Source: Paenibacillus selenitireducens (GTDB lineage: Bacteria; Bacillota; Bacilli; Paenibacillales; Paenibacillaceae). From it: 32,000 nt of DNA. The notes beneath the pieces are model-generated. The model ran no database searches and was not told the origin of the DNA. It saw only the letters and a list, made by a program, of their open reading frames with translations. Position numbers and translations under genes: made by a program. Where the stretch lies: positions 334,554 to 366,553 of the forward strand of contig NZ_MSZX01000002.1 of assembly GCF_002021565.1 (NCBI RefSeq), written 5' to 3'. Below are positions 688 through 21,077 of this stretch, piece by piece; position 1 is the first letter of the stretch; the number at the start of each line of letters is the position of its first letter.

Positions 688-731
688 GAAGAACCTCAAT
701 AATTAACTTTTGGCACAATCAATATGAGTAA

Positions 732-812
732 GACAAAACAACCCGGGATATTGCGGGACAATTGTTTATCAGTGAGAAAACCGTGCGCAATCACATTTCG
801 AACGTGATGTAG
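732..812 (+). pseudogene. gerE: upstream segment of a split gerE-type LuxR-family HTH regulator gene (equivalent to GerE residues ~26-51); ends in a junction-created TAG
   Basis: Frame-3 translation reads DKTTRDIAGQLFISEKTVRNHISNVM then a stop. This matches the GerE HTH core (DKTTKEIASELFISEKTVRNHISNAM, B. subtilis sequence from memory). An in-frame TAA at 729-731 and the absence of a start codon mean the N-terminal ~25 codons are missing here. Confidence 0.8.
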
Positions 813-829
813 TATGAAACACACCCTTG
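776..829 (+). other. putative attL (host B arm + AA crossover + element P-prime arm)
   Basis: CATTTCG-AA-CGTGATG is centred on 801-802. The CGAACGT core (799-805) is identical to 14819-14825. The P-prime arm 803-826 is an imperfect inverted copy of 14797-14820. Confidence 0.6.
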
Positions 830-961
830 ATAATACAAAAATGTGTCTTAGGTCCCTTGTTTTGGAGGGGGTAATACTCTCGAAAACAGGGATAAATATC
901 CATCATACGACATTTTTTACTAAATATTGGAATTTTGAATATTCCATATTTAAGGATTGTC

Positions 962-970
962 TGCTACAAT
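962..970 (+). promoter_or_regulatory. possible extended -10 element (TGcTACAAT) for the pilus operon
   Basis: TGCTACAAT lies in the AT-rich 215-bp leader, ~55 bp upstream of the first pilus gene. No good -35 box at 17-bp spacing. Confidence 0.2.
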
Positions 971-1024
971 TGCGATGAAATTGGAGAATATTGTATGAAA
1001 TAGATATAGGAATGAGGGTGAACG

Positions 1025-2107
1025 ATGATTAAGAACGAACGGGGATTTGCTCTCCCGATGGTGCTGATCTTAGTAACAGCTTTATCCATTTTAGGAATGG
1101 CCCTTCTTGGAGTAAGCGTAAGCCAAGCTGCCCGAACCGTTCATCAGGAGAAAAAAGAGCAGGCATTCTACATAGCGAAGTCTGGTGCAGATGCTGTTGC
1201 GTCATATATTATTGATCACTATAATCCTGTCTCGGTGAGTACCACTGATGAAATAAAGAACCTCAATAAGGGTTACTTAGAGCAGGACATATCGCTAGGA
1301 ACGGGCACTTTTCGGGCAAATGTTACGAGAGGCCCCGACGATACAATTGTTATTTCTTCCAAGGGAACCTTGGGGAAAGTTACGAACCAGGCTTCGTTGA
1401 CGTTAGGAATGGATGAACCTGTGGTGACGATAGATCACGCGATTCTTGCATCTAAGGATATTGTAAATACAGGGGAGACCATCGTGAACAACGGAGGTAA
1501 TATTGCTGCCGGTGGGAGCATCAGCGGGGATGAAATCAAATTAGATGGGGGGAGTGCAGAATCAAATTATTCAGGAGCTTTTCCTCCTGCAATCCCTTTT
1601 CCAGATATAACAGGTTGGATCACTAAAACATTAGTGATTAATGCCTCAATAAGTGAATCGGCTTATTACGGAAGTTATTTGTCTTCAGACGCTGTATTTG
1701 AAATCAACATGACGAATAACAAGGACATGCATATCGTTTTCAAGAAGTTTGAACCAGCTACGACTGTTATTAATGTGACAGGTACCGGCAACGGGATCAT
1801 TCATCTTTATATGGATAATATCAAAGTAGCTGCATCGTTTACGATTAACAATTTATTGAGTAAAAAGGTAATTCTTCATGTCAAAGATTCAATCGATCTC
1901 AATGGGTCTTTTAATTTGCACGGTGTCCTTTTGTATGCTCCCACGGCGGAATACACTTCTACGAATGGGTCGATAGATCTAAAAGGTGCAATGGTTACTA
2001 AAAAAGTGACATTACAAGGTAGTAATGTGATCAACTACGACGCCTCCATCGCCAATCTCATCAAAGAATCTCGCAAATTTGAACGCAAGAACTGGAGAAA
2101 TTCCTAG
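1025..2107 (+). CDS. PilX/PilK-like large minor pilin (pilus tip or initiation subunit)
   Basis: N-terminus ERG/FALPMVLILVTALSILGMALLG is a prepilin-like hydrophobic helix without Glu at +5. The C-terminal pattern LHGVLLYAP...GSIDLKGAMV...NYD is typical of PilX/TadG-like proteins. RBS GAGGGTG precedes the start. Confidence 0.7.
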   Translation: MIKNERGFALPMVLILVTALSILGMALLGVSVSQAARTVHQEKKEQAFYIAKSGADAVASYIIDHYNPVSVSTTDEIKNLNKGYLEQDISLGTGTFRANVTRGPDDTIVISSKGTLGKVTNQASLTLGMDEPVVTIDHAILASKDIVNTGETIVNNGGNIAAGGSISGDEIKLDGGSAESNYSGAFPPAIPFPDITGWITKTLVINASISESAYYGSYLSSDAVFEINMTNNKDMHIVFKKFEPATTVINVTGTGNGIIHLYMDNIKVAASFTINNLLSKKVILHVKDSIDLNGSFNLHGVLLYAPTAEYTSTNGSIDLKGAMVTKKVTLQGSNVINYDASIANLIKESRKFERKNWRNS

Positions 2108-2125
2108 CCAATCGGAGTGAATGAC

Positions 2126-2581
2126 ATGAACGTACGAAAACAAGAAGAAGGATTTACGTTAATCGAAGTTTTGGCGTCTTTTGTCCTCCTTGTGATCATG
2201 GCAACGGTGTTAGTGAGCCTATTCTCCAACGGATTTCGCTCCATTGACAAATTCGGTGAGCGAAGCGAGCAAATGCATTTAGCTCGGCAAGAAGTGGAAC
2301 AAGCTACAGCCGGCACAGGAAGTAACCTGACTATCCATCAAATTAAAGGTACCGGCCAACTGAAAATTGAAGGCGAGACGGTTGAGAAACAGATTAGCGG
2401 AACTTCGGGCAGCAAAATGATATTGTTCATTCCAACACCAACGCCATGGAAGACAGGTGTATCGTACACCTTAGATGACCAGGTTCGATATAACGGGAAA
2501 AACTATCGATGTGTCATCCCGCATACCTCGAATGCCAGCAACAAGCCAACCAGTACAAGTTCTCCATGGGTTACCATGTAA
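2126..2581 (+). CDS. minor pilin (prepilin-type N-terminus) fused to a C-terminal CBM5/12-type chitin-binding module
   Basis: The leader ends in G/FTLIEVL, giving Glu at +5. The C-terminus WKTGVSYTLDDQVRYNGKNYRCVIPHTSNASNKPTSTSSPW fits the W..Y..G..V.YNGK.Y.C..PHTS...P...W pattern of ChtBD3/CBM5-12. The track start 2117 is a GTG; the ATG at 2126 has GGAG at good spacing. Confidence 0.8.
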   Translation: MNVRKQEEGFTLIEVLASFVLLVIMATVLVSLFSNGFRSIDKFGERSEQMHLARQEVEQATAGTGSNLTIHQIKGTGQLKIEGETVEKQISGTSGSKMILFIPTPTPWKTGVSYTLDDQVRYNGKNYRCVIPHTSNASNKPTSTSSPWVTM

Positions 2582-2644
2582 CTTGTATCCTATATATACT
2601 TTACTCTTCACGGAGAATTCGGATCTAAGAATAGGGGATGGTAT

Positions 2645-3202
2645 ATGCGATACGTGAAGCTTGACCAGAAAGGCCTTACGATCATTGAACTGTTAGCCGC
2701 CATCGTACTGCTTACGATTGTTTTGTCTCTAGCTTTTTCATCCTATGCGTTTGGGGTCAAGTCCTTTCAACGCGCGAATGAGCAGAGCGAGCTTCAAGAT
2801 CAGGTACGAATTGTCTCTCATGTTATTACCAGCAAATTGCGATATGCCAGCGAAGTCGAACTTTTATCATCCTGTCCTACGAACCTTACTGAAGGATTTA
2901 ACTACATCTGTATGAATTCGAACAAAAAAACCATTGATCTACACACCTACGATAAAACAACATCCGCTCACAAGCTTCAAAGCCTAAATACCGCAAGCTC
3001 CAAACATCCAATCACCTACGACATCGCGTTCCAAAAAACAAATGACCATCTCTTATCCTACAGCCTGAAGAGCATGGCTGATCAACAAAAATTTGACGTA
3101 CAATCTGAGATCTTGTTATTGAATTTGGATTTGAATGCAGTATCCATAAAAATAACGGGAAGCACACCTTATCAAGGCATTGCTTTCAAAGAAAACGCTT
3201 GA
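2645..3202 (+). CDS. minor pilin (prepilin-type N-terminal cleavage/methylation domain)
   Basis: QKG/LTIIELLAAIVLLTIVLSLAF has Glu at +5. RBS GGGGA is upstream. The gene sits between the other pilin genes and pilB. Confidence 0.75.
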   Translation: MRYVKLDQKGLTIIELLAAIVLLTIVLSLAFSSYAFGVKSFQRANEQSELQDQVRIVSHVITSKLRYASEVELLSSCPTNLTEGFNYICMNSNKKTIDLHTYDKTTSAHKLQSLNTASSKHPITYDIAFQKTNDHLLSYSLKSMADQQKFDVQSEILLLNLDLNAVSIKITGSTPYQGIAFKENA

Positions 3203-3227
3203 ACTTTTTGGACGATAAATCCAAGGG

Positions 3228-4904
3228 ATGAGAGGTGAAAACGTGAATAAACCTCGGAAACGCATGGGGGATCTACTCGTTGAGTCCGGACTCCTTACGA
3301 ATGAACAGCTGCAAATTGCCCTGAATGAAAAGAAACCAACACAAAAGCTAGGGGAAACGTTATTGCAGCTCGGGTTCATCACGGAGCAAAGACTTATTGA
3401 GGTTCTAGAGTTTCAATTAGGTATTCCTTATGTCAGCTTATTCAAATACCCGATAGATACCAAGCTGTTAAGCATCGTGTCCAAAGAAACCGCCGAACGT
3501 AACAAGCTAATCCCTCTGAAAAGAGAAAGCAATAAGCTATTTGTCGCCATGGCTGACCCAATGGATTTTTATGCGATTGATGATTTGCGGCTCTCGACGG
3601 GTTTTCAGATCGAAGTGTCCATTGCGACGAAGGAAGACATTCATAAAGCCATCAGCAAATATTACAGCCTAGTGGATAACATGGAAGACCTGTTAGGCGC
3701 AGACCTCAAGTTTAAAGAGAAGGATGAAGATACGGTTACCGATGAAGACTCTCCGGTCGTCAAATTGGTCAACCAAATGATTCTTGCAGCCTATCAGCAA
3801 AAAGCGAGTGATATTCACATCGATCCGCAAGAGTCAGATGTTGTGATTCGATATCGGGTTGACGGGATCCTGAGGACAGAACGGAAATTTGCGAAACAAA
3901 TGCTGAGCATGATCGTGGCAAGGATCAAAATTTTATCCAATCTGAACATTACCGAATTCAGAATTCCGCAAGACGGTCGGATCAAAATTAATCTGGATTC
4001 CAATGCGATAGATCTTCGGGTTTCCACACTGCCAACAGTCTATGGCGAAAAGGTCGTCATGCGAATTCTCGACATCGGAAGTTCAGCTATAGATTTGAAA
4101 AGAATGAATTTTCATCCCACGAATTATGAACGTTTTGTGCGCATGATCGAAAAGCCGACAGGCATTGTGCTGATTACCGGTCCTACGGGTTCTGGCAAAT
4201 CTTCTACACTCTATTCCGCTTTGGGACAATTAAATTCGCCGGATGTCAACATTATTACCGTGGAAGATCCGGTGGAGTATCGGCTGGAAGGGGTTAATCA
4301 GGTTCAAGTCAATGTGAGTACCGGGATGACATTCTCGAAGGGATTGCGTGCGATTTTGCGTCAGGATCCGAACATCGTTATGGTCGGTGAAATTCGGGAT
4401 ACAGAGACAGCGGAGATTGCAGTTCGTGCTTCGTTAACAGGGCACTTAGTCTTGAGCACGATCCACACGAATGACGCGATCAGCACGATTACGAGATTAA
4501 TAGACATGGGAATTGAGCCTTTTCTCGTAGCTGCCTCGTTGTCTGGCGTCGTATCACAGAGGCTTGTCCGGCGCATTTGTCAGGAGTGTAAGACGCTGCA
4601 GCTTCCTTCGCAGCGGGAGACTGAAATTTTCGAAAAGCGAGGATTACAGATTGAGGCTGTCGCGAGAGGAAAAGGCTGCGGCGCTTGCAATATGACAGGC
4701 TACAAAGGAAGGATCGCTATTCATGAATTATTGGTGATCGATGATGAAATTCGCCGAATGATCATGAACAATCGTTCCATGGAACAGATCAAGGAGATCG
4801 CGGTGATGAAAGGAACCATTTTTTTAATTGATGATGGCTTAATTAAAGTAAAAGAAGGCTATACAACCACAGAAGAAGTCCTGCGCGTAGCCATCAGTGA
4901 GTAA
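3228..4904 (+). CDS. pilB: type IV pilus assembly ATPase PilB (GspE family) with N-terminal MshEN-type domain
   Basis: Walker A GPTGSGKSS, the tetracysteine motif CQEC...CGAC, and GspE-type N-terminal domains are present. An alternative GTG start at 3243 has a better RBS. Confidence 0.93.
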   Translation: MRGENVNKPRKRMGDLLVESGLLTNEQLQIALNEKKPTQKLGETLLQLGFITEQRLIEVLEFQLGIPYVSLFKYPIDTKLLSIVSKETAERNKLIPLKRESNKLFVAMADPMDFYAIDDLRLSTGFQIEVSIATKEDIHKAISKYYSLVDNMEDLLGADLKFKEKDEDTVTDEDSPVVKLVNQMILAAYQQKASDIHIDPQESDVVIRYRVDGILRTERKFAKQMLSMIVARIKILSNLNITEFRIPQDGRIKINLDSNAIDLRVSTLPTVYGEKVVMRILDIGSSAIDLKRMNFHPTNYERFVRMIEKPTGIVLITGPTGSGKSSTLYSALGQLNSPDVNIITVEDPVEYRLEGVNQVQVNVSTGMTFSKGLRAILRQDPNIVMVGEIRDTETAEIAVRASLTGHLVLSTIHTNDAISTITRLIDMGIEPFLVAASLSGVVSQRLVRRICQECKTLQLPSQRETEIFEKRGLQIEAVARGKGCGACNMTGYKGRIAIHELLVIDDEIRRMIMNNRSMEQIKEIAVMKGTIFLIDDGLIKVKEGYTTTEEVLRVAISE

Positions 4905-5952
4905 TGGGAAGGGGAAGCTGGAGCAATTGGAGCAATTATTACGAATGGCTTTTGAACAAAAAGCATCGGACTTGCACCTTACGGTAGGTGTACCACCCAT
5001 GATCCGAATCAATGGGGATCTCAAGCAATATGGCGAAGATAATTTGAAGCCCGAAGACACGATCAAGATGGCGAAGAGCATTATGACTCGAGATCAATGG
5101 GAGGTTTTGCAGGAAAAGAGAGAGCTGGATTTTTCCTTTGGGATTAAGGATATGACTCGATTCCGTGTGAATGTGTACCATCAACGTTCTCAAATAGGTA
5201 TCGCGCTCCGCCTTATACCAACAACCATCCCGGCATTGGATACTTTGCATGTACCGGAAGTTTTGCGTCAGCTAAGCACCAAAGCGCAAGGATTGATTCT
5301 CGTCACAGGCCCGACGGGAAGCGGCAAATCAACGACGCTCGCTTCGATGATCGATGACATGAACAAGAGAATGCGCAAACATGTTATTACGTTAGAGGAT
5401 CCGATTGAGTACTTGCACCGCAACCAATATTCCGTCATTAATCAACGGGAAATCGGACATGATTCGCATAGCTTTTCGAACGGACTGCGGGCCGCGCTAC
5501 GGCAAGATCCCGATGTCATCCTGGTTGGAGAGTTACGAGATCTAGAGACGATATCCATTGCCATTACAGCGGCAGAGACGGGGCACTTGGTGCTTGGAAC
5601 CTTACATACGCCGAACGCGCCTGCAACGATTGATCGTATTTTGGACGTGTTTCCAGCCAATCAGCAAGGTCAAATTCGGATTCAACTTGCATCTGTTTTG
5701 ATCGCAATTCTATCACAACGGCTTTTCCCGACCATCGACAATCGAAGCAGGCGCGTGGCAACGGAATTGTTAATTAATAATCATGCTGTTGCCAACTTGA
5801 TTCGGAATGAGAAAGTCCACCAAATCTATAACTTCATGCAGACGGGGAAATCCTTTGGCATGCATACCCTGGAAATGTCCATGAACGATTTGATCGAGAA
5901 AAAGGTGATTACTCGAGAGGTCGCAGCACCATATTTTAGGGAGATGAGTTAA
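4897..5952 (+). CDS. pilT: type IV pilus retraction ATPase PilT
   Basis: 351 aa with ASDLHL near the N-terminus, Walker A GPTGSGKST, and LVGELRD / GHLVLGTLHT motifs. The GTG start overlaps the pilB stop by 8 nt. Confidence 0.92.
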   Translation: MSNGKGKLEQLEQLLRMAFEQKASDLHLTVGVPPMIRINGDLKQYGEDNLKPEDTIKMAKSIMTRDQWEVLQEKRELDFSFGIKDMTRFRVNVYHQRSQIGIALRLIPTTIPALDTLHVPEVLRQLSTKAQGLILVTGPTGSGKSTTLASMIDDMNKRMRKHVITLEDPIEYLHRNQYSVINQREIGHDSHSFSNGLRAALRQDPDVILVGELRDLETISIAITAAETGHLVLGTLHTPNAPATIDRILDVFPANQQGQIRIQLASVLIAILSQRLFPTIDNRSRRVATELLINNHAVANLIRNEKVHQIYNFMQTGKSFGMHTLEMSMNDLIEKKVITREVAAPYFREMS

Positions 5953-7160
5953 TGGCTCAGTTTGCATATATCGGTCGTGATCGTGCCGGCAAGTCGCGTA
6001 AAGGGAAAGTTTCTGGTTCAACCCGGAAAGAAGTTGTCATGGAACTTCGCGAGAAAGGGATTGCCATTTCCGAGATCGTCGAGCTGGAAGCAAATGTGTT
6101 CAATACGGATATTACCATTGGCAACCCAGTTAAGACGCAAGATTTCGTGATTTACCTCCGTCAGTTTGCAACGTTAATCGTGGCCGGCGTGTCGGTTGCG
6201 GAAGCTACGAAGATATTGGCGGAACAGACCGCAAGTAAAGCTTTGCGAAAGGCACTAATCAATGTAGAGGAAGAATTACGATCTGGTAAACCGTTGTCAC
6301 TTGCTGCAGCCCTTCATCCAAAAATCTTTCCACCCATGTTCATTAATTTGGTACAAGCCGGGGAAGCCACGGGGAACTTGGATGAGACGCTGGAACGATT
6401 AGCTTCTTTTTTTGAGAAACAGCACTATACCGTCCAAAAGGTGAAGTCCGCACTAACTTATCCAATTGCCATCACGATTGTCGCCATTGGGGTCGTTATC
6501 TTCCTGCTTACCAAAATCGTGCCCACGTTTGCCTCGATGTTTATGCAATTCGATGCAGAATTACCGTGGATTACGAAGACCGTCTTGGCGATCAGTGACT
6601 GGATGCAGCGTTTTTGGTGGCTCATTATCTTGCTGATTGTAGGGATCGTGGTTGGCATCACAGTGGCGATGAGAAATCCATCCAGTAAATATTATCTTGA
6701 TCATGCCATTCTCAAAATCCCGATCTTTGGGAAGTTAGTGCAGAAATCCGTCATTGCCAGATTTACAAGAACATTAAGCTCGTTGTTTAAAAGCTCGGTT
6801 CCGATTCTGGATGCGCTAAGTATCGTAGACAAAGTCGTCATGAATGAAGTCATGAGTAGGGTGTTGAAGGAGTCTAGGGTCTCGCTCCAAGGAGGGAAAT
6901 CGCTGTCTGCTCCAATGAAGCAGCATTGGATATTTCCGCCGCTCGTAACACAGATGATCGCCATTGGGGAACAATCTGGTTCTCTCGATTTCATGTTGGA
7001 AAAGGTCGCGGATTTCTATGAGAAAGAAGTCGATGCGACGGCGGATGCGCTGAAAGGCTTAATCGAGCCGATCATGATCATCATGCTGGCAGGTATTGTT
7101 GGATTTATTGTGTTGTCAATTATCGTGCCGATGTTCGATATTTTCAACCATGTCAAATAG
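5952..7160 (+). CDS. pilC: type IV pilus platform protein PilC (GspF family)
   Basis: 402 aa polytopic protein with the duplicated GspF-type architecture. The ATG overlaps the pilT stop (TAATG). Confidence 0.92.
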   Translation: MAQFAYIGRDRAGKSRKGKVSGSTRKEVVMELREKGIAISEIVELEANVFNTDITIGNPVKTQDFVIYLRQFATLIVAGVSVAEATKILAEQTASKALRKALINVEEELRSGKPLSLAAALHPKIFPPMFINLVQAGEATGNLDETLERLASFFEKQHYTVQKVKSALTYPIAITIVAIGVVIFLLTKIVPTFASMFMQFDAELPWITKTVLAISDWMQRFWWLIILLIVGIVVGITVAMRNPSSKYYLDHAILKIPIFGKLVQKSVIARFTRTLSSLFKSSVPILDALSIVDKVVMNEVMSRVLKESRVSLQGGKSLSAPMKQHWIFPPLVTQMIAIGEQSGSLDFMLEKVADFYEKEVDATADALKGLIEPIMIIMLAGIVGFIVLSIIVPMFDIFNHVK

Positions 7161-7211
7161 GTTATAGTGGCAACATTATAATAGATTACTAATTTTATAG
7201 GAGGAATAAGT

Positions 7212-7745
7212 ATGTTACAAATGGCAATGAAAAGGGTCAAAAATGAGAAAGGGTTAACGCTGATTGAGTTACTGGCAGTGGTTGTTATTTTGGGGATCGT
7301 CGCGGCTATTGCGATACCTGCGATTGGGGGATTGATTGACAGAACGAAAAAAGACGCACATGTTGCGAATGCAATTCAAATGATAGCAGCTGCAAAAATG
7401 GCTGTTGTGGGTGATGAGAGAGCAAGACCTACCGCTACAACAATTACAAAATATATATCTTTAGACTGGTTAGTTGTAAATGGATATCTTGATCCAGTGA
7501 AGGATCCCGATGGTACAACGAATGGTTACTCAGTTGGTACTGCTGCTGCCACACCTCCACCTAGTACTGTAGCTACAGCAGGTTCCCATGTTTTAGCAAC
7601 ATTAACCACATCAACTGGTGCAATTTCTTATAGCGTATTTCTAAAAAATGATACACGCGGAGTACGAGAAACTGCAACTAGTACAGGTACTGCAGCTACT
7701 GACTACGTGAAAGAATCAACCGTGAACCGTGACGCAGTTAAATAG
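7212..7745 (+). CDS. pilA: major type IV pilin PilA
   Basis: NEKG/LTLIELLAVVVILGIVAAIAIPA is a canonical class III signal with Glu at +5. A strong AGGAGG RBS precedes the start. The C-terminal half is rich in Thr/Ser/Ala. A hairpin follows the gene. Confidence 0.88.
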   Translation: MLQMAMKRVKNEKGLTLIELLAVVVILGIVAAIAIPAIGGLIDRTKKDAHVANAIQMIAAAKMAVVGDERARPTATTITKYISLDWLVVNGYLDPVKDPDGTTNGYSVGTAAATPPPSTVATAGSHVLATLTTSTGAISYSVFLKNDTRGVRETATSTGTAATDYVKESTVNRDAVK

Positions 7746-7810
7746 GTCAACTCCATAGTCACTTGTGGCCTAGAAGTTAATCTTGTTACAATCAGACATC
7801 TATAACTAAT

Positions 7811-7833
7811 CACGCCCTCGTTAGGGGGGCGTG
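7811..7833 (+). terminator. hairpin after pilA (probable leaky terminator or attenuator)
   Basis: CACGCCC (7811-7817) pairs with GGGCGTG (7827-7833), followed only by a weak TT-rich tract. It lies between the major pilin gene and pilD. Confidence 0.4.
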
Positions 7834-7862
7834 TTATCCATTGTCCTAACTGGAGGCAAACC

Positions 7863-8615
7863 ATGACCGCGTTTTATTCCATTTATGCTGCGATTGCAGG
7901 TTTATTGTTAGGCTCCTTTTATAATGTGGTAGGTTTACGGGTTCCCTTAGGCGAATCGATCATTCGACCACGCTCGCATTGCACGACATGCCAACGTACA
8001 CTGGGAGCCAGCGAGCTGGTCCCTTTTTTTTCTTATCTTTTCTTAAGGGGTGCCTGCCGGGGATGCGGTACGAAAATATCATTCCTTTATCCGCTAACCG
8101 AAATGGGGACTGCGCTGTTATTTGTTAGCATGCCATGGTTCATCGGCTGGTCGCCGGAATTATTCGTCGCATGGGCGTTAATCTCCCTGTTGATTATCAT
8201 TTGTATTTCAGATCTTCGGTATATGTTAATTCCGAACAAAGTGTTGCTGGTCTTTTCGGTTATTTTTCTCGGATTGCGTCTCCTCCTTCCAGTAGATCCT
8301 TGGTGGGATATGTTCCTGGGTGCCGGTGTTGGCTTTGCGTTGCTGTTACTTATCGCGATCGTGAGCAAGAACGGCATGGGCGGAGGAGATATTAAATTGT
8401 TTGCCGTCCTCGGCATGGTCTTAGGATGGAAAGGTGTATTACTTGCTTTCCTGTTATCTTGCTGCTATGGCACACTCATCGGCATCGTTGGAATGCTTCT
8501 CGGGAAAGTACGAAGAGGGAAGCCAATGCCGTTCGGACCTGCCATTGCATTAGGCACATTAACTGCATATTTGTGGGGAGAAGCACTTCTTACATGGTAT
8601 TACCAGTTTCTATGA
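7863..8615 (+). CDS. pilD: prepilin peptidase / N-methyltransferase PilD (A24 family)
   Basis: N-terminal Cys pairs CTTC...CRGC are present. The catalytic Asp motifs are ISDLRYMLIPN and GGGDIKLF. The protein is polytopic. Confidence 0.92.
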   Translation: MTAFYSIYAAIAGLLLGSFYNVVGLRVPLGESIIRPRSHCTTCQRTLGASELVPFFSYLFLRGACRGCGTKISFLYPLTEMGTALLFVSMPWFIGWSPELFVAWALISLLIIICISDLRYMLIPNKVLLVFSVIFLGLRLLLPVDPWWDMFLGAGVGFALLLLIAIVSKNGMGGGDIKLFAVLGMVLGWKGVLLAFLLSCCYGTLIGIVGMLLGKVRRGKPMPFGPAIALGTLTAYLWGEALLTWYYQFL

Positions 8616-8633
8616 TGTAGTGGAGGAGAAAAG

Positions 8634-9698
8634 ATGAGAGCAAGTCGGACAACGCGTGTAAATCAAGAACATCATACCCATGTAGCAAACATTGTGAACA
8701 GAAAGCAGCCGAAAAAGAAAATGGTCAGCTTGATGATCAAAGACCATGTCATTCGATATATGGATGCCAAGCGACCGAATTTGCGGGGAGCAACCGCCTT
8801 CGGGGAATATGATTTGCCTTCAGGCATCATTCATGAAGGCAGGATTGCAGAGCCGGATCGGTTGCGTACCATTCTGAAGGATTGCATTCAAAAGTGGAAA
8901 CTCAAAGACCGAGAAGTGCAGTTTATTGTCCCGGATTCTGTCGTGATCGTACGGAAGATTGAGATTTCGGCGGAGATCGAGGAGGAGGAGATCAAGGGAC
9001 ATCTATATTTGGAATTAGGAACGAACATCCATCTTCCCTTTGAGGATCCGATATTTGATATTGATTTTCTAGGACGCTCCGATGAGAAACAAGAAATTCT
9101 ATTATTTGCCGCACCGGAGCAGATTGTTAACGAATACGCACAGATCTTGACCAGCGCAGGTCTGAAGCCTGTTGCAGCCGATGTGTCTTCGCTGGCCATC
9201 TATCGTTTATTTTATAAAGTGAATGATGAATTGGAATTGGACATTGTCTCGGAAGCACCGGTTCTATCCGTTCAATTCGACCTGCAGACGGTAACGGTAG
9301 GCGTCATTCATAAGCATAAATTAATGCTTCTTCGTCAATTTCGGATGAATCTATCCATCGATAACTGGGAACGGCAAACGAACAAAAGAGATGTCAATAC
9401 ACCGGTGTGGATCGGCGATGAGAGCTACTTAACCTATGAAATTAATGTAATGATCGGAGAGATTCAGCGCGTCATCAGCTTCTATCGTTCCGTTACGAAT
9501 CATCATGAAGATGAGATTGAAACGATAATATTAACGGGAGATTATCCGTATTTAGAGGATATCGCAACCAATCTGCATCAACATTTTGAAAAAATGCCTT
9601 TTACGTTCTCAAAAGAATTGTTCGAGACGCAATCGAAGGAACTCGTTCCACCGAAATATTATTTGCCGCTAGGATTAGCCCTAAAGGGGGGCGTCTAA
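8634..9698 (+). CDS. pilM: type IV pilus assembly protein PilM (actin-like ATPase fold)
   Basis: 354 aa, GGAGGAG RBS, position directly upstream of pilN with an overlapping stop/start, and PilM-like sequence organisation. Confidence 0.8.
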   Translation: MRASRTTRVNQEHHTHVANIVNRKQPKKKMVSLMIKDHVIRYMDAKRPNLRGATAFGEYDLPSGIIHEGRIAEPDRLRTILKDCIQKWKLKDREVQFIVPDSVVIVRKIEISAEIEEEEIKGHLYLELGTNIHLPFEDPIFDIDFLGRSDEKQEILLFAAPEQIVNEYAQILTSAGLKPVAADVSSLAIYRLFYKVNDELELDIVSEAPVLSVQFDLQTVTVGVIHKHKLMLLRQFRMNLSIDNWERQTNKRDVNTPVWIGDESYLTYEINVMIGEIQRVISFYRSVTNHHEDEIETIILTGDYPYLEDIATNLHQHFEKMPFTFSKELFETQSKELVPPKYYLPLGLALKGGV

Positions 9699-10264
9699 TG
9701 CTGAGTGAGATTAACTTGCTCCCCCAACGGGAGCAGCGAAGCATTTTTTTTGTCATTGGGATCACGGTCATATTGGCTTTCGGTTTGCTTAGCACTGGCG
9801 TTCTCTTCTTCCAATATCAGTCCCTGAAGACGGATCAAGATCGACAACAGGCGGAAGCGAAGACGGTCGAGAAAATGATTGAAATCGAATCGCAAAAACT
9901 CCTGCAAGGCGCGAGTACCTCGGAAGTAGGTCAATATGAACAGATTGTTCACACGATCGAGCAACTGCCGGTGGATACGATCCGAATTCTTGACCAATTA
10001 TCTGCGGCCTTGCCTCAGAGCGGCTTCTTTACTTCCTATTCTTATCAGGATCCTGGAACGGTGTCGGTGATTGCGGATTTCGGGACATCAGAGGATGCTG
10101 CGCAATATCTTTATCATTTAACATATGCGGATTGGGTACGCAAAATCGAGATCAGCTCTCTAGTAAAACAAGATAGTGGGATAAAGGTCCTTTACAAAGC
10201 GACGTATACGCTCGAATTGAAACGGGATGTATTCGCTGAAGTGAAAGGAGCGGGTACAGAATGA
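9698..10264 (+). CDS. pilN: type IV pilus assembly protein PilN
   Basis: The N-terminal EINLLPQRE signature is followed by a single TM helix. The gene is translationally coupled to pilM and pilO. Confidence 0.85.
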   Translation: MLSEINLLPQREQRSIFFVIGITVILAFGLLSTGVLFFQYQSLKTDQDRQQAEAKTVEKMIEIESQKLLQGASTSEVGQYEQIVHTIEQLPVDTIRILDQLSAALPQSGFFTSYSYQDPGTVSVIADFGTSEDAAQYLYHLTYADWVRKIEISSLVKQDSGIKVLYKATYTLELKRDVFAEVKGAGTE

Positions 10265-11037
10265 ACGCGAAACAGGTAAGAATATTAACCTTGGCTGTCT
10301 CGTGTATTCTCATCCTTTCCGGGTTGCTATTGTTTTATTTCAATCGTATCCAGCCTACACAAAGCCAAGTGAAGACGTTGAAAAGTAAAATTGCAACAGA
10401 TAAAAAGGTGCTGGAAAAGCTGCAATCGCAGGCCCATGAACAGCAGCAGAGTAAGGCGGATCTTCTGGAGTTGCAGCGTAAGGTTCCTGTCGAAGCCTTT
10501 GTGGACCAGATGATTCTCGATCTACGGAAGGATGAACAACAATCCAAGAGTAAGATTCGTAATATGGGGTTGAGCTATACGAATACATCATTAAATGAAT
10601 TGAGTCAAGTGATAGGTATTCCTAACCTACAATCACCGAACGCGACAGTTTCGCAGCCTGTCAATACAGCAGCATCAAATGAAGGAACTTCAACGGTGCC
10701 AGCTGATACGAGTGCCAATCCAGCACCATCAAGCGAAAATCCCGCAGTGCAGCTGGAAGTTTACAAAATAGGCCTCACCTTAAGCGTTGAATCACCGACC
10801 TATAACGATTTCAAAACCTTTGTACTTGGGATCCAACAACTAGACCGCGTTATTCAAATTGATGCCATATCATTCACGGATACCGCCAACACCTATAACC
10901 TCACGGTATCCGCATTCTATGCGCCGCAATTCCAAGGATTTGAGGAACGGCTTCCACGGGCCTCGTTCCCGGCACCAAGCGGCAAGACTGTACCGATTCA
11001 AGTGACGAATCCCGTAACAGAACCTGCAGGAACTTAA
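10261..11037 (+). CDS. pilO: type IV pilus assembly protein PilO-like
   Basis: An N-terminal TM helix and coiled-coil segment precede a conserved C-terminal domain. There is an internal Ser/Thr/Pro/Asn-rich insert. The start overlaps the pilN stop (ATGA). Confidence 0.7.
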   Translation: MNAKQVRILTLAVSCILILSGLLLFYFNRIQPTQSQVKTLKSKIATDKKVLEKLQSQAHEQQQSKADLLELQRKVPVEAFVDQMILDLRKDEQQSKSKIRNMGLSYTNTSLNELSQVIGIPNLQSPNATVSQPVNTAASNEGTSTVPADTSANPAPSSENPAVQLEVYKIGLTLSVESPTYNDFKTFVLGIQQLDRVIQIDAISFTDTANTYNLTVSAFYAPQFQGFEERLPRASFPAPSGKTVPIQVTNPVTEPAGT

Positions 11038-11056
11038 GAAAGAGGGTGAACGTACG

Positions 11057-12499
11057 ATGTCCATTCGTGTTCTCATTGTTGATGATACGAAATTTCTACG
11101 CCTGATGTTAACGGATATATTAACAAAATCCGGGTATGAGGTTGTAGGTCAAGCAGAGAACGGTGTTATTGCCGTCGACAAGTTCAGAGAATTGCGGCCC
11201 GATCTGGTGATTATGGATATTACGATGCCAGAGATGGACGGAATTACGGCGTTAAAGGAGATTAGGGCCATCGAGCCGCAGTCTGTCATCTTAATCTGCT
11301 CTGCGATGAGTCAGCGAGATCTCATTTCCAAGGCATTAAAGGCAGGCGCGAACAATTATGTGATGAAGCCGTTCGAACCTGAGCGCGTCAAGGAGATCAT
11401 TCTTGAAGTTATGCCACTAATGGAGAACAACAAAAAAGAAAAAGCATCCATAAAAGCTCCGATTGAGCCGGAACCTGTGCAAGAATCCGTGGTGACGGAA
11501 GACCAGGCAACTAAATTGCGCAAATCGTTTGCTGAACAGACCAGTGAACAGTATATCTTATCTGAAGCAGCCGTAGCGCCGATAGAAGACTCGTTTCCAG
11601 AACCAGAACTAGAATCACCAATAGAACCTCGCCTTGAAGTGAAGGAAGCACTTGTCTCGGAAACGCCCGACTTGGTGGAACAGGTAGAACCCATGTTGGA
11701 AGCAAGAATATCTTCCGAAGCGGAAGAAGAGTTCGGCACATTACTCGAAGGCATTGAAAATCCAACCCCAACAGGGATCACTGCGGATCATGAACGAAGC
11801 AACCCTGGCGTATTGGAAGAAATAACAGCTGCATCTGCGGAAGCTGCAGTTTCGGTTACCGCTGTCAACGAGATAAATATCTCCGCGGAATCCCTCCCGG
11901 GTGATTTTACGCATCTGTCCAAACGTCTGGAGGCTGAGCTCAAGCATACCCCTGAGGAGCCTATCTCTAATACATCAGAAGAGCAGCAAGCTAGCGCAGA
12001 GGAAGTATCTTTAGACGAGAACAACGAAGAACAGACTGGAACGAATCATCTTGATGAGAATGAACTTGATGAACAAGAAGGATCACCTTCCCGTTCATCG
12101 AATCCTGCCGTCTGGTTCGAACAATTGATTTTTTCCAATTCCAATAAAACGGGGGATGCTGAGATGGCAAGAAATCCGCAAATGATAGATGCTGAGGTCA
12201 GACAGGAACATCATGTGGCAACAATCGATCAAGGTAGCAGTTCAAGCATGCTGCCAGAACTGAAACGCAAAAATATGCGGAACTTCGCAAGCAGTATCAT
12301 GTGCAAATTTTCAGAACAGGTCGATGGGAAGGAAATGGACTATTTCGTTGTCTACAACGAATTTGACAAGTCGATTCGGATCGATATGATCTCTCCCGAT
12401 GAGAAGCGCAACAGCATTCAATTATCGCTCGACGGGTTCACTTTTATTATGGAATGGCTCGAACAGAAGGGCGTACGCATCGATAAAGTCTTAGATTAA
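11057..12499 (+). CDS. CheY-like response regulator receiver fused to a ~230-aa acidic low-complexity linker and an uncharacterised C-terminal domain
   Basis: Residues 1-120 align closely with Bacillus CheY as I remember it (ILIVDD, PDLV.MDITMPEMDGITALKEI, CSAM, VMKPF). The rest is Glu/Pro/Ser-rich, followed by a ~100-aa globular-looking tail. RBS AGAGGGTG precedes the start. Confidence 0.85.
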   Translation: MSIRVLIVDDTKFLRLMLTDILTKSGYEVVGQAENGVIAVDKFRELRPDLVIMDITMPEMDGITALKEIRAIEPQSVILICSAMSQRDLISKALKAGANNYVMKPFEPERVKEIILEVMPLMENNKKEKASIKAPIEPEPVQESVVTEDQATKLRKSFAEQTSEQYILSEAAVAPIEDSFPEPELESPIEPRLEVKEALVSETPDLVEQVEPMLEARISSEAEEEFGTLLEGIENPTPTGITADHERSNPGVLEEITAASAEAAVSVTAVNEINISAESLPGDFTHLSKRLEAELKHTPEEPISNTSEEQQASAEEVSLDENNEEQTGTNHLDENELDEQEGSPSRSSNPAVWFEQLIFSNSNKTGDAEMARNPQMIDAEVRQEHHVATIDQGSSSSMLPELKRKNMRNFASSIMCKFSEQVDGKEMDYFVVYNEFDKSIRIDMISPDEKRNSIQLSLDGFTFIMEWLEQKGVRIDKVLD

Positions 12500-12529
12500 T
12501 AGAAGCCATCAAAGTTAAGGAGGACAATC

Positions 12530-12817
12530 ATGAAGAACAAGCAAATCAGTCAATTAACTTTGTGCGATTCTTATAACCATTCTCAGATCATACCGATCGC
12601 CAATGCGAGGCAAATCTTTGACAAAATCGTTAAGGTCTACGTCAGCCGTGAAGATATCTATAATCACTCGAAGACGCCGAGGGAGTTCCAAGCCTATCAA
12701 AACATTGATAGCGAAACCTTGCTTATTGTCGTGAGTATCCGCAGTGATTGGTGGACGCCATGGAAAGGCATGGTGACGGAAGACGTTTATTTTTATCGAG
12801 AACCTTTTGCGCAATGA
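12530..12817 (+). CDS. hypothetical protein (95 aa); candidate accessory or directionality factor
   Basis: A strong AAGGAGG RBS lies 7 nt upstream of the ATG. No family recognised. The gene sits between the pilus/regulator block and the recombinase gene. Confidence 0.5.
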   Translation: MKNKQISQLTLCDSYNHSQIIPIANARQIFDKIVKVYVSREDIYNHSKTPREFQAYQNIDSETLLIVVSIRSDWWTPWKGMVTEDVYFYREPFAQ

Positions 12818-12908
12818 GGTACAGAAGTGAATGAAGAAGCGGGCAACTCCAATCAGGGAGAGGCTCGTTTCTTTTTTTTGTTCTATAAAGGCGCGGAAAG
12901 GAGCGGTT

Positions 12909-13061
12909 ATGGTACAAGACGGCAGGTTCATAGACATAATTATCACAAGCGGAGAGGAGCGGACCGAATGCCTAAAGACGCCAAACCATCGTATCGAATA
13001 CATGTACATCCCGGAAAGGAGAATAGAGAACACATCATGGATGAGCTTGCCAAGCAAGTGA
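12909..13061 (+). CDS. possible small ORF (~50 aa)
   Basis: This is an internal ATG of the 12831 ORF, preceded by AAAGGAG at 6-nt spacing. No family recognised. The competing overlapping frames look compositionally implausible. Confidence 0.2.
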   Translation: MVQDGRFIDIIITSGEERTECLKTPNHRIEYMYIPERRIENTSWMSLPSK

Positions 13062-13199
13062 TTCAGCGCAATGTAGTGGATTTTCACATGCAAAACGAAA
13101 GGGTAAAAAAAATCCCCCTACCAGGACGAGCAGGCTGAACCAATAAAGGAAGCAGACATTTTCTAATGATGAAAATGAATCGTCATGGGGGAGGCGATA

Positions 13200-14762
13200 A
13201 TGAGAGCAGCCATTTATGTACGTGTTAGTACGACCAAAGACAGTCAGAAGGATAGCCCGGAACATCAAATTGCAGCTTGTAAATATTTTGCGGAGGACAT
13301 GGGGTGGGAGACAGCGGAAGACATGATATATGAAGACCGCGAATCTGGGACGAATATTACCGATAGGCTAGCGATTCAGCAAGCGTTAAAGGATGCACAT
13401 CAGGGCGCATTCCAAGTGATTATTTTCGCCGCATTATCGCGGTTCGCACGTGATATTGGGGATTCGATCAATCTCAAGCGTAAGCTGGTGAATGCCCTTC
13501 GGATTCGCCTCATCTCCATCGACGACCATTATGATTCCGACCGAGATGATGAGATGTTATTCTCGATTATCTCGAGTATTAATCAGTCCTTGAGCGAGCA
13601 GATCAGCCGAAGTACACGTCGGGGGAAGCGGGAATCCGCGTTAAAAGGGAATTTTACAGGAAATCGGCCACCGTATGGATATGACAAAGAAACGAGAAAT
13701 GGCTTAAAGACATTGGTACCCAATGAGAACCAGAAGATGGTTGTTGAGACGATTTTCCAACTGTATACAGCCAATCATTTCGGGGAGAAATCTATCGCTG
13801 CTTATTTGAATGATCAAGGAATCCCCTCCCCGAAGGATGGAAAATGGGGTATTACCACGATACAACGCATCTTGCAAAACGAAGCCTATGTCGGGAAAAA
13901 TCGTTCCTCGAAATTTGAAATTCGAAAAGTGTATACCAATGTCGATGATATGACAGAACGTAAAAAAGTATTAGTTCAAAAGCCAAAACGCGAATGGCGT
14001 TACGCGCATAACAGCTGGACGCATCAAGGCATTATTGATGAAGCAACGTTCCGGCTTGCTGAGAATCTTCGCTTGCAACGCGGCGGTGGACAACGTGGCG
14101 GGCCTCGCCAAAAGGTTAATGTTTTCGCGGGAATGATGAAATGCGCACATTGCGGTTCCTCCATGGTCAGCATGAAATCCACACGTCGAATTCGAGAGCA
14201 ATCGAGACGAGATTACCGATACCTCATTTGTTCCAGAAGAAGAAGGCAAGGAGAGTCAGGCTGCTGCAACAATTATTGGCTGCCGTATGATCCCTTTCAC
14301 GAAGATCTCATCCAATGCATATCACAAATATTACGCAGTACATTTTCGCCAGAGGAGCTGTTGGAGAAACATAAGCGTCTTGTCCAAGTCACGCACACGG
14401 ATCTCGAATCCGAAATGAAAAAACGCAAAAAGTGGATTATCGAAAATCGTAAATGTCTGATGGAGCTTCGCAAAGAACGACTCAAAGGGCATGTGTTGGA
14501 TGAACATCAATATGAATTAGAAAAAAGTCATTATGAGCGGGAAATCGTGCAGCATGAGAGCAGACTCATTCAACTTCAGCAGGAATGGCAGCGTAAAACG
14601 GATATGACGGATTTATACGAGAAGACGATGGAACGGTTAAATGATCTGTTGAATGTATCCTTCGAAACCTTTGATGATAGCCAACTTACATTGAAAAAAC
14701 TCATCTCTCGTATAGAAGCGGATCGTCAGGGAAATGTACATGTGTTCATGACATTTGATTAG
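13200..14762 (+). CDS. large serine recombinase (resolvase catalytic domain + recombinase domain + zinc ribbon + coiled coil), SpoIVCA/SprA-like
   Basis: The sequence shows MRAAIYVRVST with catalytic Ser10, ALSRFARD, GNRPPYGYDKE, the Cys cluster CAHCGS...CSRRRRQGESGCC, and a C-terminal heptad-rich region. The ATG at 13200 has a GGGGAGG RBS; the track start is 13185. Confidence 0.9.
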   Translation: MRAAIYVRVSTTKDSQKDSPEHQIAACKYFAEDMGWETAEDMIYEDRESGTNITDRLAIQQALKDAHQGAFQVIIFAALSRFARDIGDSINLKRKLVNALRIRLISIDDHYDSDRDDEMLFSIISSINQSLSEQISRSTRRGKRESALKGNFTGNRPPYGYDKETRNGLKTLVPNENQKMVVETIFQLYTANHFGEKSIAAYLNDQGIPSPKDGKWGITTIQRILQNEAYVGKNRSSKFEIRKVYTNVDDMTERKKVLVQKPKREWRYAHNSWTHQGIIDEATFRLAENLRLQRGGGQRGGPRQKVNVFAGMMKCAHCGSSMVSMKSTRRIREQSRRDYRYLICSRRRRQGESGCCNNYWLPYDPFHEDLIQCISQILRSTFSPEELLEKHKRLVQVTHTDLESEMKKRKKWIIENRKCLMELRKERLKGHVLDEHQYELEKSHYEREIVQHESRLIQLQQEWQRKTDMTDLYEKTMERLNDLLNVSFETFDDSQLTLKKLISRIEADRQGNVHVFMTFD

Positions 14763-14795
14763 CTTGCTGTTCTTGCGGATACGCTCCTCTATATT

Positions 14796-14848
14796 CATGT
14801 GTGCTTCAAACCCCATCACGAACGTAATGCAGAAACTGAATGTAAAGG
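14796..14848 (+). other. putative attR (element P arm + AA crossover + host B-prime arm)
   Basis: CATCACG-AA-CGTAATG is centred on 14821-14822. By hand alignment, the P arm 14797-14820 matches the reverse complement of 803-826 at 18 of 24 positions. Confidence 0.6.
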
Positions 14849-14901
14849 GTCGTTCGCAAGCGGTTGTCGAGTTGATCAAGCTTGGGGAGCTAAAAATCTA
14901 A
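14821..14901 (+). pseudogene. gerE: downstream segment of the split gerE-type gene (equivalent to GerE residues ~49-74, with stop)
   Basis: The translation NVMQKLNVKGRSQAVVELIKLGELKI-stop matches the GerE C-terminus (NAMQKLGVKGRSQAVVELLRMGELEL, from memory). There is no start codon or RBS of its own. Confidence 0.8.
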
Positions 14902-14980
14902 TCTGCTTGTCACTCTAATTGACCTTCTTTACCTTTGTTTCCTATGGAAGCAGGGGTGAGGGAGGTTCTTTGATTTCCGC

Positions 14981-17284: not shown

Positions 17285-17303
17285 TTCCCTATTTTTTCAA
17301 ACC

Positions 17304-18959
17304 TTACTGGATGCTATTGTACCTGTCAAGCAATTGTTGATCGATTTCAATCAATTGGTCGAGGCCAAGCTTCTTCAATTCAGCGATATATTGATCCCAG
17401 TCATCAAGCGATTTTTGACCTAACGCCAGCTTGGTTGCAAGCTCTGTGGAGTAAGTGTTCAGGTTCGTTAATATTTTGGTCTTTGTCTCCAATTGCTTAT
17501 CATCCGGGATCGCTAAGAAGTTATTATTCATGTTGACAAAATACGGTTTGTAATTTAGTACTTGCAGTTCGTTGTCTGCTTTATATTTAGGCGCACTGGA
17601 AAGCTCGAACTCCAGGTTGGAGAATTGTACGCGCGGGAAGACCGTATCTCCCATCAGCATGTTGCCCGTCACTTGCTTCGTTTTTGCCAGTTCCTCGGCC
17701 GGTCCGTTGTTGAGATATATTTTTGCGCCGTTGCTTTCCACTTTATAGGTCTGCCCTTCAATGCCCCAGAACATGAGATCTGCGTATTTGTCCGAGTATA
17801 CCATATCGAAAAATTTAATGGCTGCTTCAATGTCTTTACAATCTTTTGTAATGGCATATTTATTGAAAATAAGGAAATGAGGCTCCTGCTGTACGGCAGG
17901 GGTGATGCCTTCAACCGCTTTGAGCGGCATGAGCGGCAGGAATTCGCCTCCGCCACGGATTGTGGGTTCTACATAGTTTTCCAGATTGTAATCATGCAAG
18001 GATGCCACCTGGTTGTCTGTTATTTTTTGTTGATTTTGCTCCCCTGTTGCTTCGATGAGACTCGTGTCAAGCACGCCTTCCTTCACTAATCGCTGCATGT
18101 AACGGAAGTAATCCTTGACGCCTTCCTGATACCATGGAGACACGACTTTTTTGTTCTCGACATCAACCGCTGTAACGCCTGTTCCGAGTCCGAACCATTG
18201 CGCAATGGCGCCAGTGAACTGGCCAGGATAATTGTATACAAGCACTTCGTCTTTCTTGCCGTTGCCATTGGCGTCGAGTTCTCTGAATTTCTTCAGCGTT
18301 TCCAAATATTCATCCGCTGTTGTTGGAACCGGAAGATGTAGCTTATCCAGCCAGTCTTTGCGAATGAGCATGGTAAGGGAGACGGGTGCGGGATCTTTGC
18401 CTTGGTATGTTTTCTTGTGAAGATTGCTGAACCAGTACATTTTGCCGTCGGGAGAGGTTGTTGATTTTTTGGCATAAGGGAACTCGACGTCATACATTTT
18501 TTTGATGTTGCCGTTGCTGTATTTCTCGATCAATGGGTTCAGATCTAGAAGTACGCCTTGCTTCGCTAAATTCAGAACGGTCGTATTATCAAGCTTCGAT
18601 ATGTTCACGATGTCCGGAAGGTTGGACCCTGATGCCATTCTTGTCTTGAGGACCACTTCATATTGTTCTGCAGGGACCATTTCGTTGTCCAGCTCTAGTC
18701 CGTTGTTTTTCAGCAGCTTGTCAATCTCTGCCCATACCGGATATTTATCTCGATCATCGAATTTAATATATTTGTTGATGCCGGCTGGGCCAAGCATTTT
18801 TAGTTTCGTAACCTTTTGTTCGGAAGAAGTGGTGCTGCCGCTGCCTTCCTGCTTCGTGCCGCTCGAACCGTTATCGGTTTTGCTGCTGCAAGCAGTGATT
18901 GATCCGACGAGCAGAACTGCCGCCATACTGGATACGAATGTTTTTTTCCAAAGCTTCAT
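17304..18959 (-). CDS. extracellular solute-binding lipoprotein of a carbohydrate ABC transporter (LplA-like)
   Basis: The lipoprotein signal MKLWKKTFVSSMAAVLLVGSITAC has a lipobox. The protein is ~550 aa, and the gene is adjacent to two sugar ABC permease genes. Confidence 0.85.
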   Translation of the reverse strand: MKLWKKTFVSSMAAVLLVGSITACSSKTDNGSSGTKQEGSGSTTSSEQKVTKLKMLGPAGINKYIKFDDRDKYPVWAEIDKLLKNNGLELDNEMVPAEQYEVVLKTRMASGSNLPDIVNISKLDNTTVLNLAKQGVLLDLNPLIEKYSNGNIKKMYDVEFPYAKKSTTSPDGKMYWFSNLHKKTYQGKDPAPVSLTMLIRKDWLDKLHLPVPTTADEYLETLKKFRELDANGNGKKDEVLVYNYPGQFTGAIAQWFGLGTGVTAVDVENKKVVSPWYQEGVKDYFRYMQRLVKEGVLDTSLIEATGEQNQQKITDNQVASLHDYNLENYVEPTIRGGGEFLPLMPLKAVEGITPAVQQEPHFLIFNKYAITKDCKDIEAAIKFFDMVYSDKYADLMFWGIEGQTYKVESNGAKIYLNNGPAEELAKTKQVTGNMLMGDTVFPRVQFSNLEFELSSAPKYKADNELQVLNYKPYFVNMNNNFLAIPDDKQLETKTKILTNLNTYSTELATKLALGQKSLDDWDQYIAELKKLGLDQLIEIDQQLLDRYNSIQ

Positions 18960-18992
18960 GGACGAATTCCCCCTAAAATCATTTTTTGAGTC

Positions 18993-19904: not shown

Positions 19905-19915
19905 CGAATTCCCCC

Positions 19916-20851: not shown

Positions 20852-21077
20852 AACCTTCCCCTTTCACCGATCGATTGCGGCATTACCGGGCCCGTTCTTC
20901 CGCATGGATTCATAATAAAGGGGAGCTTCTAATGAAGGCAAGCAACATAATTTGATGCGCTGCGCAATATTTGCGCACTATTTTTTCTACTAATACAATC
21001 TTTAAAAGTGAATAAATGTATATCCATGTAAATAAAAGTATATTGAAATTACCAACTTCGCCCAACATACTAACCCT

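Follow-up and report, generated by a model that had tools for sequence, protein, structure and literature searches.

The gene-intervening elements known from spore formers comprise prophages and their relics, together with the gin island of the Bacillus cereus group. The locus described here lies in a 32,000-nucleotide (nt) stretch of the Paenibacillus selenitireducens genome (assembly GCF_002021565.1, contig NZ_MSZX01000002.1, positions 334,554 to 366,553, forward strand), referred to below as the window. Within it, two pieces of the sporulation gene gerE are separated by a 14,020-bp element carrying a large serine recombinase and a type IV pilus operon.

The most similar described system is gin of B. 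cereus ATCC 10987, which interrupts gerE at the overlap sequence CATCTCAAA in the His-Ile-Ser-Asn codons, with the cut predicted at the terminal AA of that sequence, in the Asn codon (Abe et al. 2017, PMC5595907). It carries 31 genes, including three serine recombinases (girA, girB, and girC), recJ, and a restriction-modification system, and it is excised at T3 to T5 of sporulation by GirC together with the 42-amino-acid (aa) GirX, which is encoded far from girC. Excision is not induced by mitomycin C, and the truncated 5' GerE is inactive (PMC5595907). The original prediction for the window, made from the DNA alone, had referred to a gerE element in this B. cereus strain. That element is real, being gin, and it occupies the same codon (PMC5595907). 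Both elements are nonphage, lie inside the gerE coding region, and pair a large serine recombinase with a very small accessory protein, which here is a candidate. They also share the HISN codons, a predicted crossover at the Asn AA, and attP symmetry, the attP of gin being an imperfect inverted repeat and the present one a near-palindrome. The P. selenitireducens element differs in having a single recombinase and no recJ, a small open reading frame (ORF) immediately upstream of the recombinase, type IV pilus cargo, a host from another family, and a gerE without its 5' third. This comparison was by enzyme class and description.

Other described systems are less similar. In SPbeta, which splits spsM (SprA/SprB), and skin, which splits sigK (SpoIVCA), a mother-cell gene is likewise interrupted and rejoined by a large serine recombinase, but these are prophages or prophage remnants of 48 to 134 kb with other target genes, and sequence similarity is only distant. 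The Paenibacillus larvae Fernvirus phages (Likha, Xenia, Shelly, PBL1c, and Fitz) have a homologous small ORF upstream of the integrase and, downstream of it, an attP with the same palindrome, AA center, and gerE-like arm, but they are complete phage genomes. The fdxN element of Anabaena heterocysts, with XisF, is likewise removed during development, in terminally differentiated cells, by an enzyme of the large serine recombinase class, and differs in phylum, target gene, and the accessory proteins XisH and XisI. Against this background, the locus is of note mainly for its pilus cargo, its compact, phage-shared module, and the range of evolutionary states found at one small gene.

gerE is split by a 14-kb element

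On the plus strand, positions 732 to 809 of the window translate to DKTTRDIAGQLFISEKTVRNHISNVM and run into a TAG at 810 to 812, while 14821 to 14898 translate to NVMQKLNVKGRSQAVVELIKLGELKI followed by a TAA at 14899 to 14901. The two co-oriented pieces and their translations were thus exactly as originally predicted, and the shared string CGAACGT was located at both junctions (799 to 805 and 14819 to 14825). The pieces were matched by GerE in tblastn at E = 2e-11 and E = 4e-11. Joining them in silico gave an open frame of 49 codons, colinear with GerE as had been proposed. The joined 49 aa aligned without gaps to residues 26 to 73 of B. subtilis GerE (PDB 1FSE; E = 8.8e-21) and matched Pfam PF00196 at E = 7e-16. 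Among the 120 best Paenibacillaceae GerE matches listed, mostly 74 to 84 aa in length, 19 contained the joined sequence exactly. Although residues 26 to 74 match gaplessly, residues 1 to 25 are absent, and the locus is therefore best described as gerE-derived DNA and not as an intact gene.

A search of relatives for an uninterrupted gerE was successful: one was present in L020, a short assembly of a Paenibacillus terrigena-like strain, at about 93% nt identity to both pieces. Window positions 732 to 812 matched L020 3154 to 3234 at 92.6% nt identity and 14809 to 14976 matched L020 3211 to 3376 at 92.9%. Both matches include the core, where they overlap, and that of the 3' piece reaches on into the common downstream flank. 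The closest genome obtained, that of P. terrigena DSM 21567 (L018), was 87% identical at the nt level to window positions 14980 to 21078, and the downstream AraC regulator and ABC-transporter genes were syntenic between the two species, as expected of a native chromosomal position. PilC and the AraC-family regulator of the window were 100% identical to P. selenitireducens proteins. The uninterrupted gerE of L020, with its shared downstream flank, shows both pieces to be the native gerE of the P. selenitireducens lineage.

The element extends from 801 to 14820. From left to right, it consists of an element-side arm of ∼60 bp, the pilus island (∼866 to ∼12890), the recombination module, and attR (Table 1). 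When attP and attB were reconstructed by swapping arms at the shared AA (801 to 802 and 14821 to 14822), attP read ...GTGTGCTTCAAACCCCATCACG-AA-CGTGATGTAGTATGAAACACAC..., with 18 of the 22 positions nearest the AA on either side symmetric about it and a perfect CATCACG/CGTGATG pair. The center of symmetry is the AA of the gerE Asn49 codon. The reconstructed attB, ...CACATTTCG-AA-CGTAATGCAG..., was not symmetric. A palindromic attP around a central dinucleotide is a signature of large serine integrases (PMC5595907). Excision at the AA is predicted to remove exactly 14,020 bp.

The recombinase ORF is intact at 525 aa, adjoins attR and the 3' gerE piece, and includes a Zn_ribbon_recom domain. Its closest solved structure was SprA of SPbeta (E = 6e-14), and the NCBIfam XisF model matched it at E = 3e-21, below the cut-off of the model. 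Family searches of the window proteins detected no phage structural, conjugation, or replication genes in the element beyond this integrase. Element and flanks have the same GC content, which points to a long-term resident.

The small ORF has a core, resembling RIHxxxGxGxLxExIDELARQVV, that aligned across all modules, including the 46 to 47% identical modules of P. terrigena and Paenibacillus aquistagni and that of one P. larvae phage. Because of its constant position and its covariation with the recombinase, it is a candidate directionality factor and a possible functional counterpart of the 42-aa GirX. Eight elements (the window, L001, L002, L004, and L006 to L009) have a conserved, promoter-like block, GGTTATGGTACAAGA-N9-CATA, that lies ∼30 to 65 nt before the small ORF, and its CATA motif is of the kind seen in mother-cell promoters.

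Taken together, the split of a mother-cell gene into ordered pieces whose frame is restored by joining, the intact recombinase abutting the 3' piece, the expected att architecture, the recurrence of such elements, and the uninterrupted allele in relatives bear out the proposal of a gerE-intervening element of the skin/SPbeta/gin type. The expectation that excision gives a functional gene was at variance with the data, as detailed below.

Table 1. Features of the split gerE locus and the intervening element (window coordinates)
Feature	Position	Strand	Remarks
gerE middle fragment, codons 26-51, with insertion-created TAG	729-812	+	tblastn; 1FSE match; homology start ∼729
attL: gerE-side half-site, AA 801-802 (predicted crossover), element-side arm CGTGATGTAGTATGAAACACAC	771-832	+	arm also in relatives
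Type IV pilus island, own promoter region to terminator after orf95	866-12890	+	end-to-end homologous to P. uliginis pilus locus outside gerE
PilX-like minor pilin/tip protein (PilX_N, DUF7305)	1025-2107	+	
Minor pilin with C-terminal CBM_5_12 carbohydrate-binding module, N-methylation motif	2117-2581	+	
Minor pilin (N-methylation motif)	2645-3202	+	
PilB assembly ATPase (T2SSE, MshEN)	3228-4904	+	
PilT retraction ATPase	4897-5952	+	
PilC platform protein	5952-7160	+	
Major pilin candidate	7212-7745	+	
PilD prepilin peptidase (A24)	7863-8615	+	
PilM (8634-9698), PilN (9698-10264), PilO (10261-11037)	8634-11037	+	
CheY-like receiver protein with long acidic tail	11057-12499	+	last large pilus-operon gene; conserved in relatives
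orf95 (95 aa), no family, ends pilus island	12530-12817	+	96% identical in P. uliginis
Promoter-like block GGTTATGGTACAAGA-N9-CATA, conserved, upstream of small ORF	12905-12940	+	
Small ORF (56 aa), strong ribosome-binding site, candidate recombination directionality factor	12968-13138	+	directly upstream of every related recombinase
Large serine recombinase, intact (Resolvase, Recombinase, and Zn-ribbon domains)	13185-14762	+	likely true start ATG 13200 behind GGGGGAGG
attR: element-side arm GTGTGCTTCAAACCCCATCACG, AA 14821-14822, gerE-side half-site	14791-14852	+	
gerE 3' fragment, codons 49-74, with TAA	14821-14901	+	downstream flank native, common to P. terrigena and L020

Homologous elements at gerE in other Paenibacillaceae

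In 14 further Paenibacillaceae assemblies, gerE was found to be broken at the same AA, with a related recombinase adjoining in 13. A scan with the recombinase, restricted to one genome per species, returned ten loci, of which nine had a recombinase 56 to 80% identical to that of the window and one had only a distant relative (27%). Pieces of gerE were present at the same site in eight of the nine, both pieces in four and the 3' piece next to the recombinase in the other four, where the 5' piece lies beyond the flank covered; the contig of the remaining locus ends first. The elements measured 3.3 to ∼15 kb and differed in cargo, with only the small ORF and the recombinase common to all. In all other loci whose junctions were read, arms of the form GTGT(N)TTCAAAC...GTTTGAAACAC flanked the AA.

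The smallest example came from the closest genome. The P. terrigena gerE is interrupted at the same AA by a minimal element of 2.55 kb whose contents are a DUF1360 gene, two small ORFs, and a recombinase sharing 46% identity with that of P. selenitireducens; here the 5' piece is complete (residues 1 to 51). In P. aquistagni and two related assemblies, the order was a YhcN/YlaJ gene, the gerE 5' piece (residues 1 to 51), the pilus operon, a response regulator, orf99, a 48-aa ORF, a recombinase (47% identical), and the gerE 3' piece.

The recombinase was frameshifted in Paenibacillus cisolokensis (L009) and truncated to 267 aa in Paenibacillus lemnae (L007). The P. lemnae contig (JABBPN010000003.1) also carries an intact 77-aa gerE (L017 10001 to 10234) located 12.5 kb upstream of the truncated recombinase and a relic attR with a gerE 3' piece (L007 10010 to 11273). 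There, 172 nt comprising the gerE 3' end and terminator are duplicated at both ends with 97.7% identity. Two origins are conceivable, a replacement 3' end brought in by the element or repair of the gene through duplication.

Among annotated proteins, those closest to the recombinase were the integrases of temperate P. larvae phages, with 43.7% identity over 99% of the length. An attP-like palindrome that follows the integrase of phage Likha directly reads GTATTTCAAACCACATCTCC-AA-TATAACATGTTTTGAAACAC (L021 4380 to 4425; MG727702.1, about 37031 to 37076), and its left arm spells the gerE codons Asn-His-Ile-Ser-Asn. This suggests that P. larvae phages of the Fernvirus type integrate into gerE at the same AA, for which no report was found. 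The recombination module is, as judged from these alignments, common to phages and nonphage islands.

Across the Paenibacillaceae, then, a compact module of a small ORF and a serine recombinase targets the same gerE dinucleotide. The module ranges from a bare 2.5-kb cassette to islands of 15 kb and also occurs in temperate phages. Neither this module nor gerE-intervening elements in Paenibacillus nor a pilus operon within such an element were found described in the searchable literature. The states sampled at gerE include the intact gene, the split gene, a split gene whose recombinase has decayed, a gene with a duplicated 3' end that may stem from repair, and a 5'-truncated gene. With several evolutionary states at a single locus, the Paenibacillus gerE locus is well suited to asking whether elements of this kind act as domesticated regulators or as selfish passengers. 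In addition, its recombinase and att pairs are candidate orthogonal tools.

The missing 5' third, excision, and alternative explanations

It had been predicted that simple excision would rebuild the gene. This did not hold, as the locus lacks the 5' third of gerE. An in-frame TAA at 729 to 731 forms the codon directly before Asp26, and the breakpoint there was sharp, both when five split copies of gerE were aligned and against the uninterrupted gerE, with homology to the gerE of L001, L002, L005, L009, L013, L018, and L020 beginning at ∼729. To the left of it, the sequence is unrelated to gerE. No 5' piece encoding codons 1 to 25 was detected in the 32-kb window by tblastn with three GerE N termini or by blastn with the L020 5' region, which returned noise only. 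The upstream block conserved in other Paenibacillus species, TTGACTGTATCCCTTGACC...AAGGAGGGGTGAC, which carries the ribosome-binding site (...AAGGAGGGGTGAC-N4-TTG), is also absent at this locus. The product of excision would therefore consist of codons 26 to 74 only, with no promoter, ribosome-binding site, or start codon. The original prediction was right that the pieces cover residues 26 to 74 but had not pointed out that residues 1 to 25 are absent.

The 5' side of gerE is evidently unstable in the P. terrigena/P. selenitireducens clade. The canonical gerE promoter and ribosome-binding-site block is missing from P. terrigena and L020 as well; in P. terrigena, where the order is NagA-NagB-RpiR, phage remnant, and gerE, the promoter was also sought beyond the remnant and was not found. 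In this group, genes for a phage holin, in some cases an amidase, and an ArpU-like protein abut the gerE start codon (L018 15597 to 16942, minus strand; L020 1190 to 3079).

The interpretation favored here, and considered probable, is that an integrative element of 14,020 bp, with a two-gene recombination module as its core, inserted into the native gerE and is still excisable. In the proposed mechanism, the recombinase, presumably active, would bind both attL and attR and, with the small protein as its directionality factor, would cut at the AA of the Asn49 codon. The element would thereby be released as a circle with the palindromic attP, and gerE would be resealed as attB. By analogy with gin, skin, and SPbeta, excision may take place in the terminally differentiated mother cell during sporulation, so that the spore would keep the element, the pilus operon being inherited as part of it. 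A separate event would have replaced everything to the left of gerE codon 26 in the P. selenitireducens genome, and the resealed product would be a promoter-less remnant of 49 codons. For this reason, the element would either be newly orphaned from the function of its host gene or excise for purposes of its own. The ability to excise is likely, since everything needed for recombination between attL and attR is intact by sequence.

Several observations weigh against this interpretation. With gerE codons 1 to 25, the ribosome-binding site, and the promoter missing, excision at this locus would bring no obvious benefit to sporulation. Decay of the recombinase in two relatives (L007 and L009) shows that elements of this type do end up as fixed relics. 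Temperate P. larvae phages also use related recombinases, and excision therefore need not be developmental. Finally, the spacing of the promoter-like block upstream of the small ORF fits none of the sigma-E, sigma-K, and sigma-G consensus sequences.

The strongest of the alternatives, though an unlikely one, is that the locus is itself a fixed relic, in which gerE is a dead pseudogene, the element no longer excises, the pilus operon is plain chromosomal DNA, and any GerE function comes from another copy. The 5' truncation with its in-frame stop would fit such a state, as would the comparable end state in P. lemnae, with a truncated recombinase and a gerE 3' relic 12.5 kb downstream of an intact gerE, and the frameshifted recombinase of P. 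cisolokensis. However, the 525-aa recombinase ORF, the small ORF, and both att arms are intact in P. selenitireducens, and no GerE labelled as from this species was present among the 120 best GerE matches or their cluster members, in which multispecies entries hide organism names.

Slightly less probable is an ordinary mobile element, whose module serves horizontal transfer or phage-like integration and not development, with gerE as no more than its preferred attB. The 44% full-length identity of the recombinase to the integrases of temperate P. larvae phages is consistent with this, as is the Likha-type attP, with its identical architecture and gerE-like half-site; different elements at the site in closely related species likewise imply turnover. 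On the other hand, genes for phage structure, conjugation, or replication are missing from the element, which matches its host in composition, and gin, the one studied case, excises sporulation specifically and not in response to mitomycin C (PMC5595907).

It is improbable that gerE is in three pieces, with the promoter and codons 1 to 25 lying further left, separated from the rest by another, unrelated insertion that ends at 729 on its right side. The sharpness of the breakpoint would be explained in this way, positions 1 to 728 had no homologue in the relatives, phages, and metagenomes searched, as would be the case for imported DNA, and the closest relatives also have foreign DNA (phage holin, amidase, and ArpU-like genes) 5' of gerE. 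Nevertheless, these 728 bp contain no recombinase, att-like repeat, or phage gene, and a simple deletion explains the same facts. Were gerE in three pieces, the rebuilding of a single 225-bp gene would depend on two independent developmental excisions. For the missing 5' third as such, the explanations that remain are a recent deletion or replacement that killed gerE and left the element intact, a second insertion, and a gerE copy elsewhere. Chance resemblance, or an origin of the pieces from two different LuxR-type paralogues, was rejected, as only their short length speaks for it, whereas an uninterrupted orthologue is exactly colinear with them, has 93% nt identity to each, and shares their downstream flank, and the joined pieces are identical to sequence within 19 full-length GerE proteins.

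Type IV pilus cargo and the left flank

The pilus operon, which the original prediction had not identified, accounts for ∼12 kb of the element. Pfam searches identified a complete set as intact ORFs, namely, PilB, PilT, PilC, the prepilin peptidase, PilMNO, and major and minor pilins, and ORF lengths equalled those of the orthologues in P. aquistagni and Paenibacillus uliginis. The operon is complete and apparently functional. If the element is excised in the mother cell, a complete, housekeeping-like machine would be deleted from the chromosome of that cell and inherited only via the spore.

In P. uliginis, strain FJAT-18019, and Paenibacillus montanisoli, a homologous pilus operon is located elsewhere, with no gerE pieces or recombinase within ∼4 to 6 kb on either side. 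Window positions 864 to 12884 were homologous to the P. uliginis locus, with identities of 89% (left end) and 83% (right end), and the homology stopped sharply ∼55 nt inside attL and just past the orf95 terminator. Because of these sharp ends at both island edges, the element can be described as a minimal cassette, such as that in P. terrigena, with a whole operon placed between the left arm and the recombination module. When P. selenitireducens was compared with P. aquistagni, identities were 42 to 56% for the more diverged of the pilus proteins and 47% for the recombinases, a similar divergence that is compatible with a single old capture. The operon may have undergone either one ancient capture followed by loss or repeated capture. 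Tentatively, a two-gene gerE-targeting cassette may have captured a whole pilus operon and may move or maintain it among Paenibacillus species.

Two of the pilus-operon products have additional features. The fusion of a minor pilin to CBM_5_12 (2117 to 2581) is kept in P. aquistagni, P. uliginis, and FJAT-18019, which hints that the pilus binds chitin or cellulose. The CheY-like protein (11057 to 12499) has a low-complexity acidic tail, a conserved C-terminal region of ∼100 aa, and no output-domain family; among relatives, the protein measures 480 to 685 aa.

The left flank (1 to 728) contains a 68-aa ORF (461 to 667), for which no family was found in Pfam, PHROGs, or NCBIfam, and three strong hairpins (about 137 to 180, 268 to 300, and 648 to 676). 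No homologue of the flank was found in relatives or in phage DNA, nor, by protein or by exact junction sequence, in viral or metagenome contigs, and no Rfam family, tRNA, terminal repeats, recombinase, att-like repeat, or phage gene was detected in it. One noncoding stretch of 57 nt (66 to 122) was 82% identical (E = 4e-10) to a sequence in Paenibacillus fonticola (L004 16728 to 16784). The P. fonticola copy lies ∼2.4 kb downstream of gerE, and the stretch, which matched no Rfam family, may be a small dispersed repeat or a regulatory RNA.

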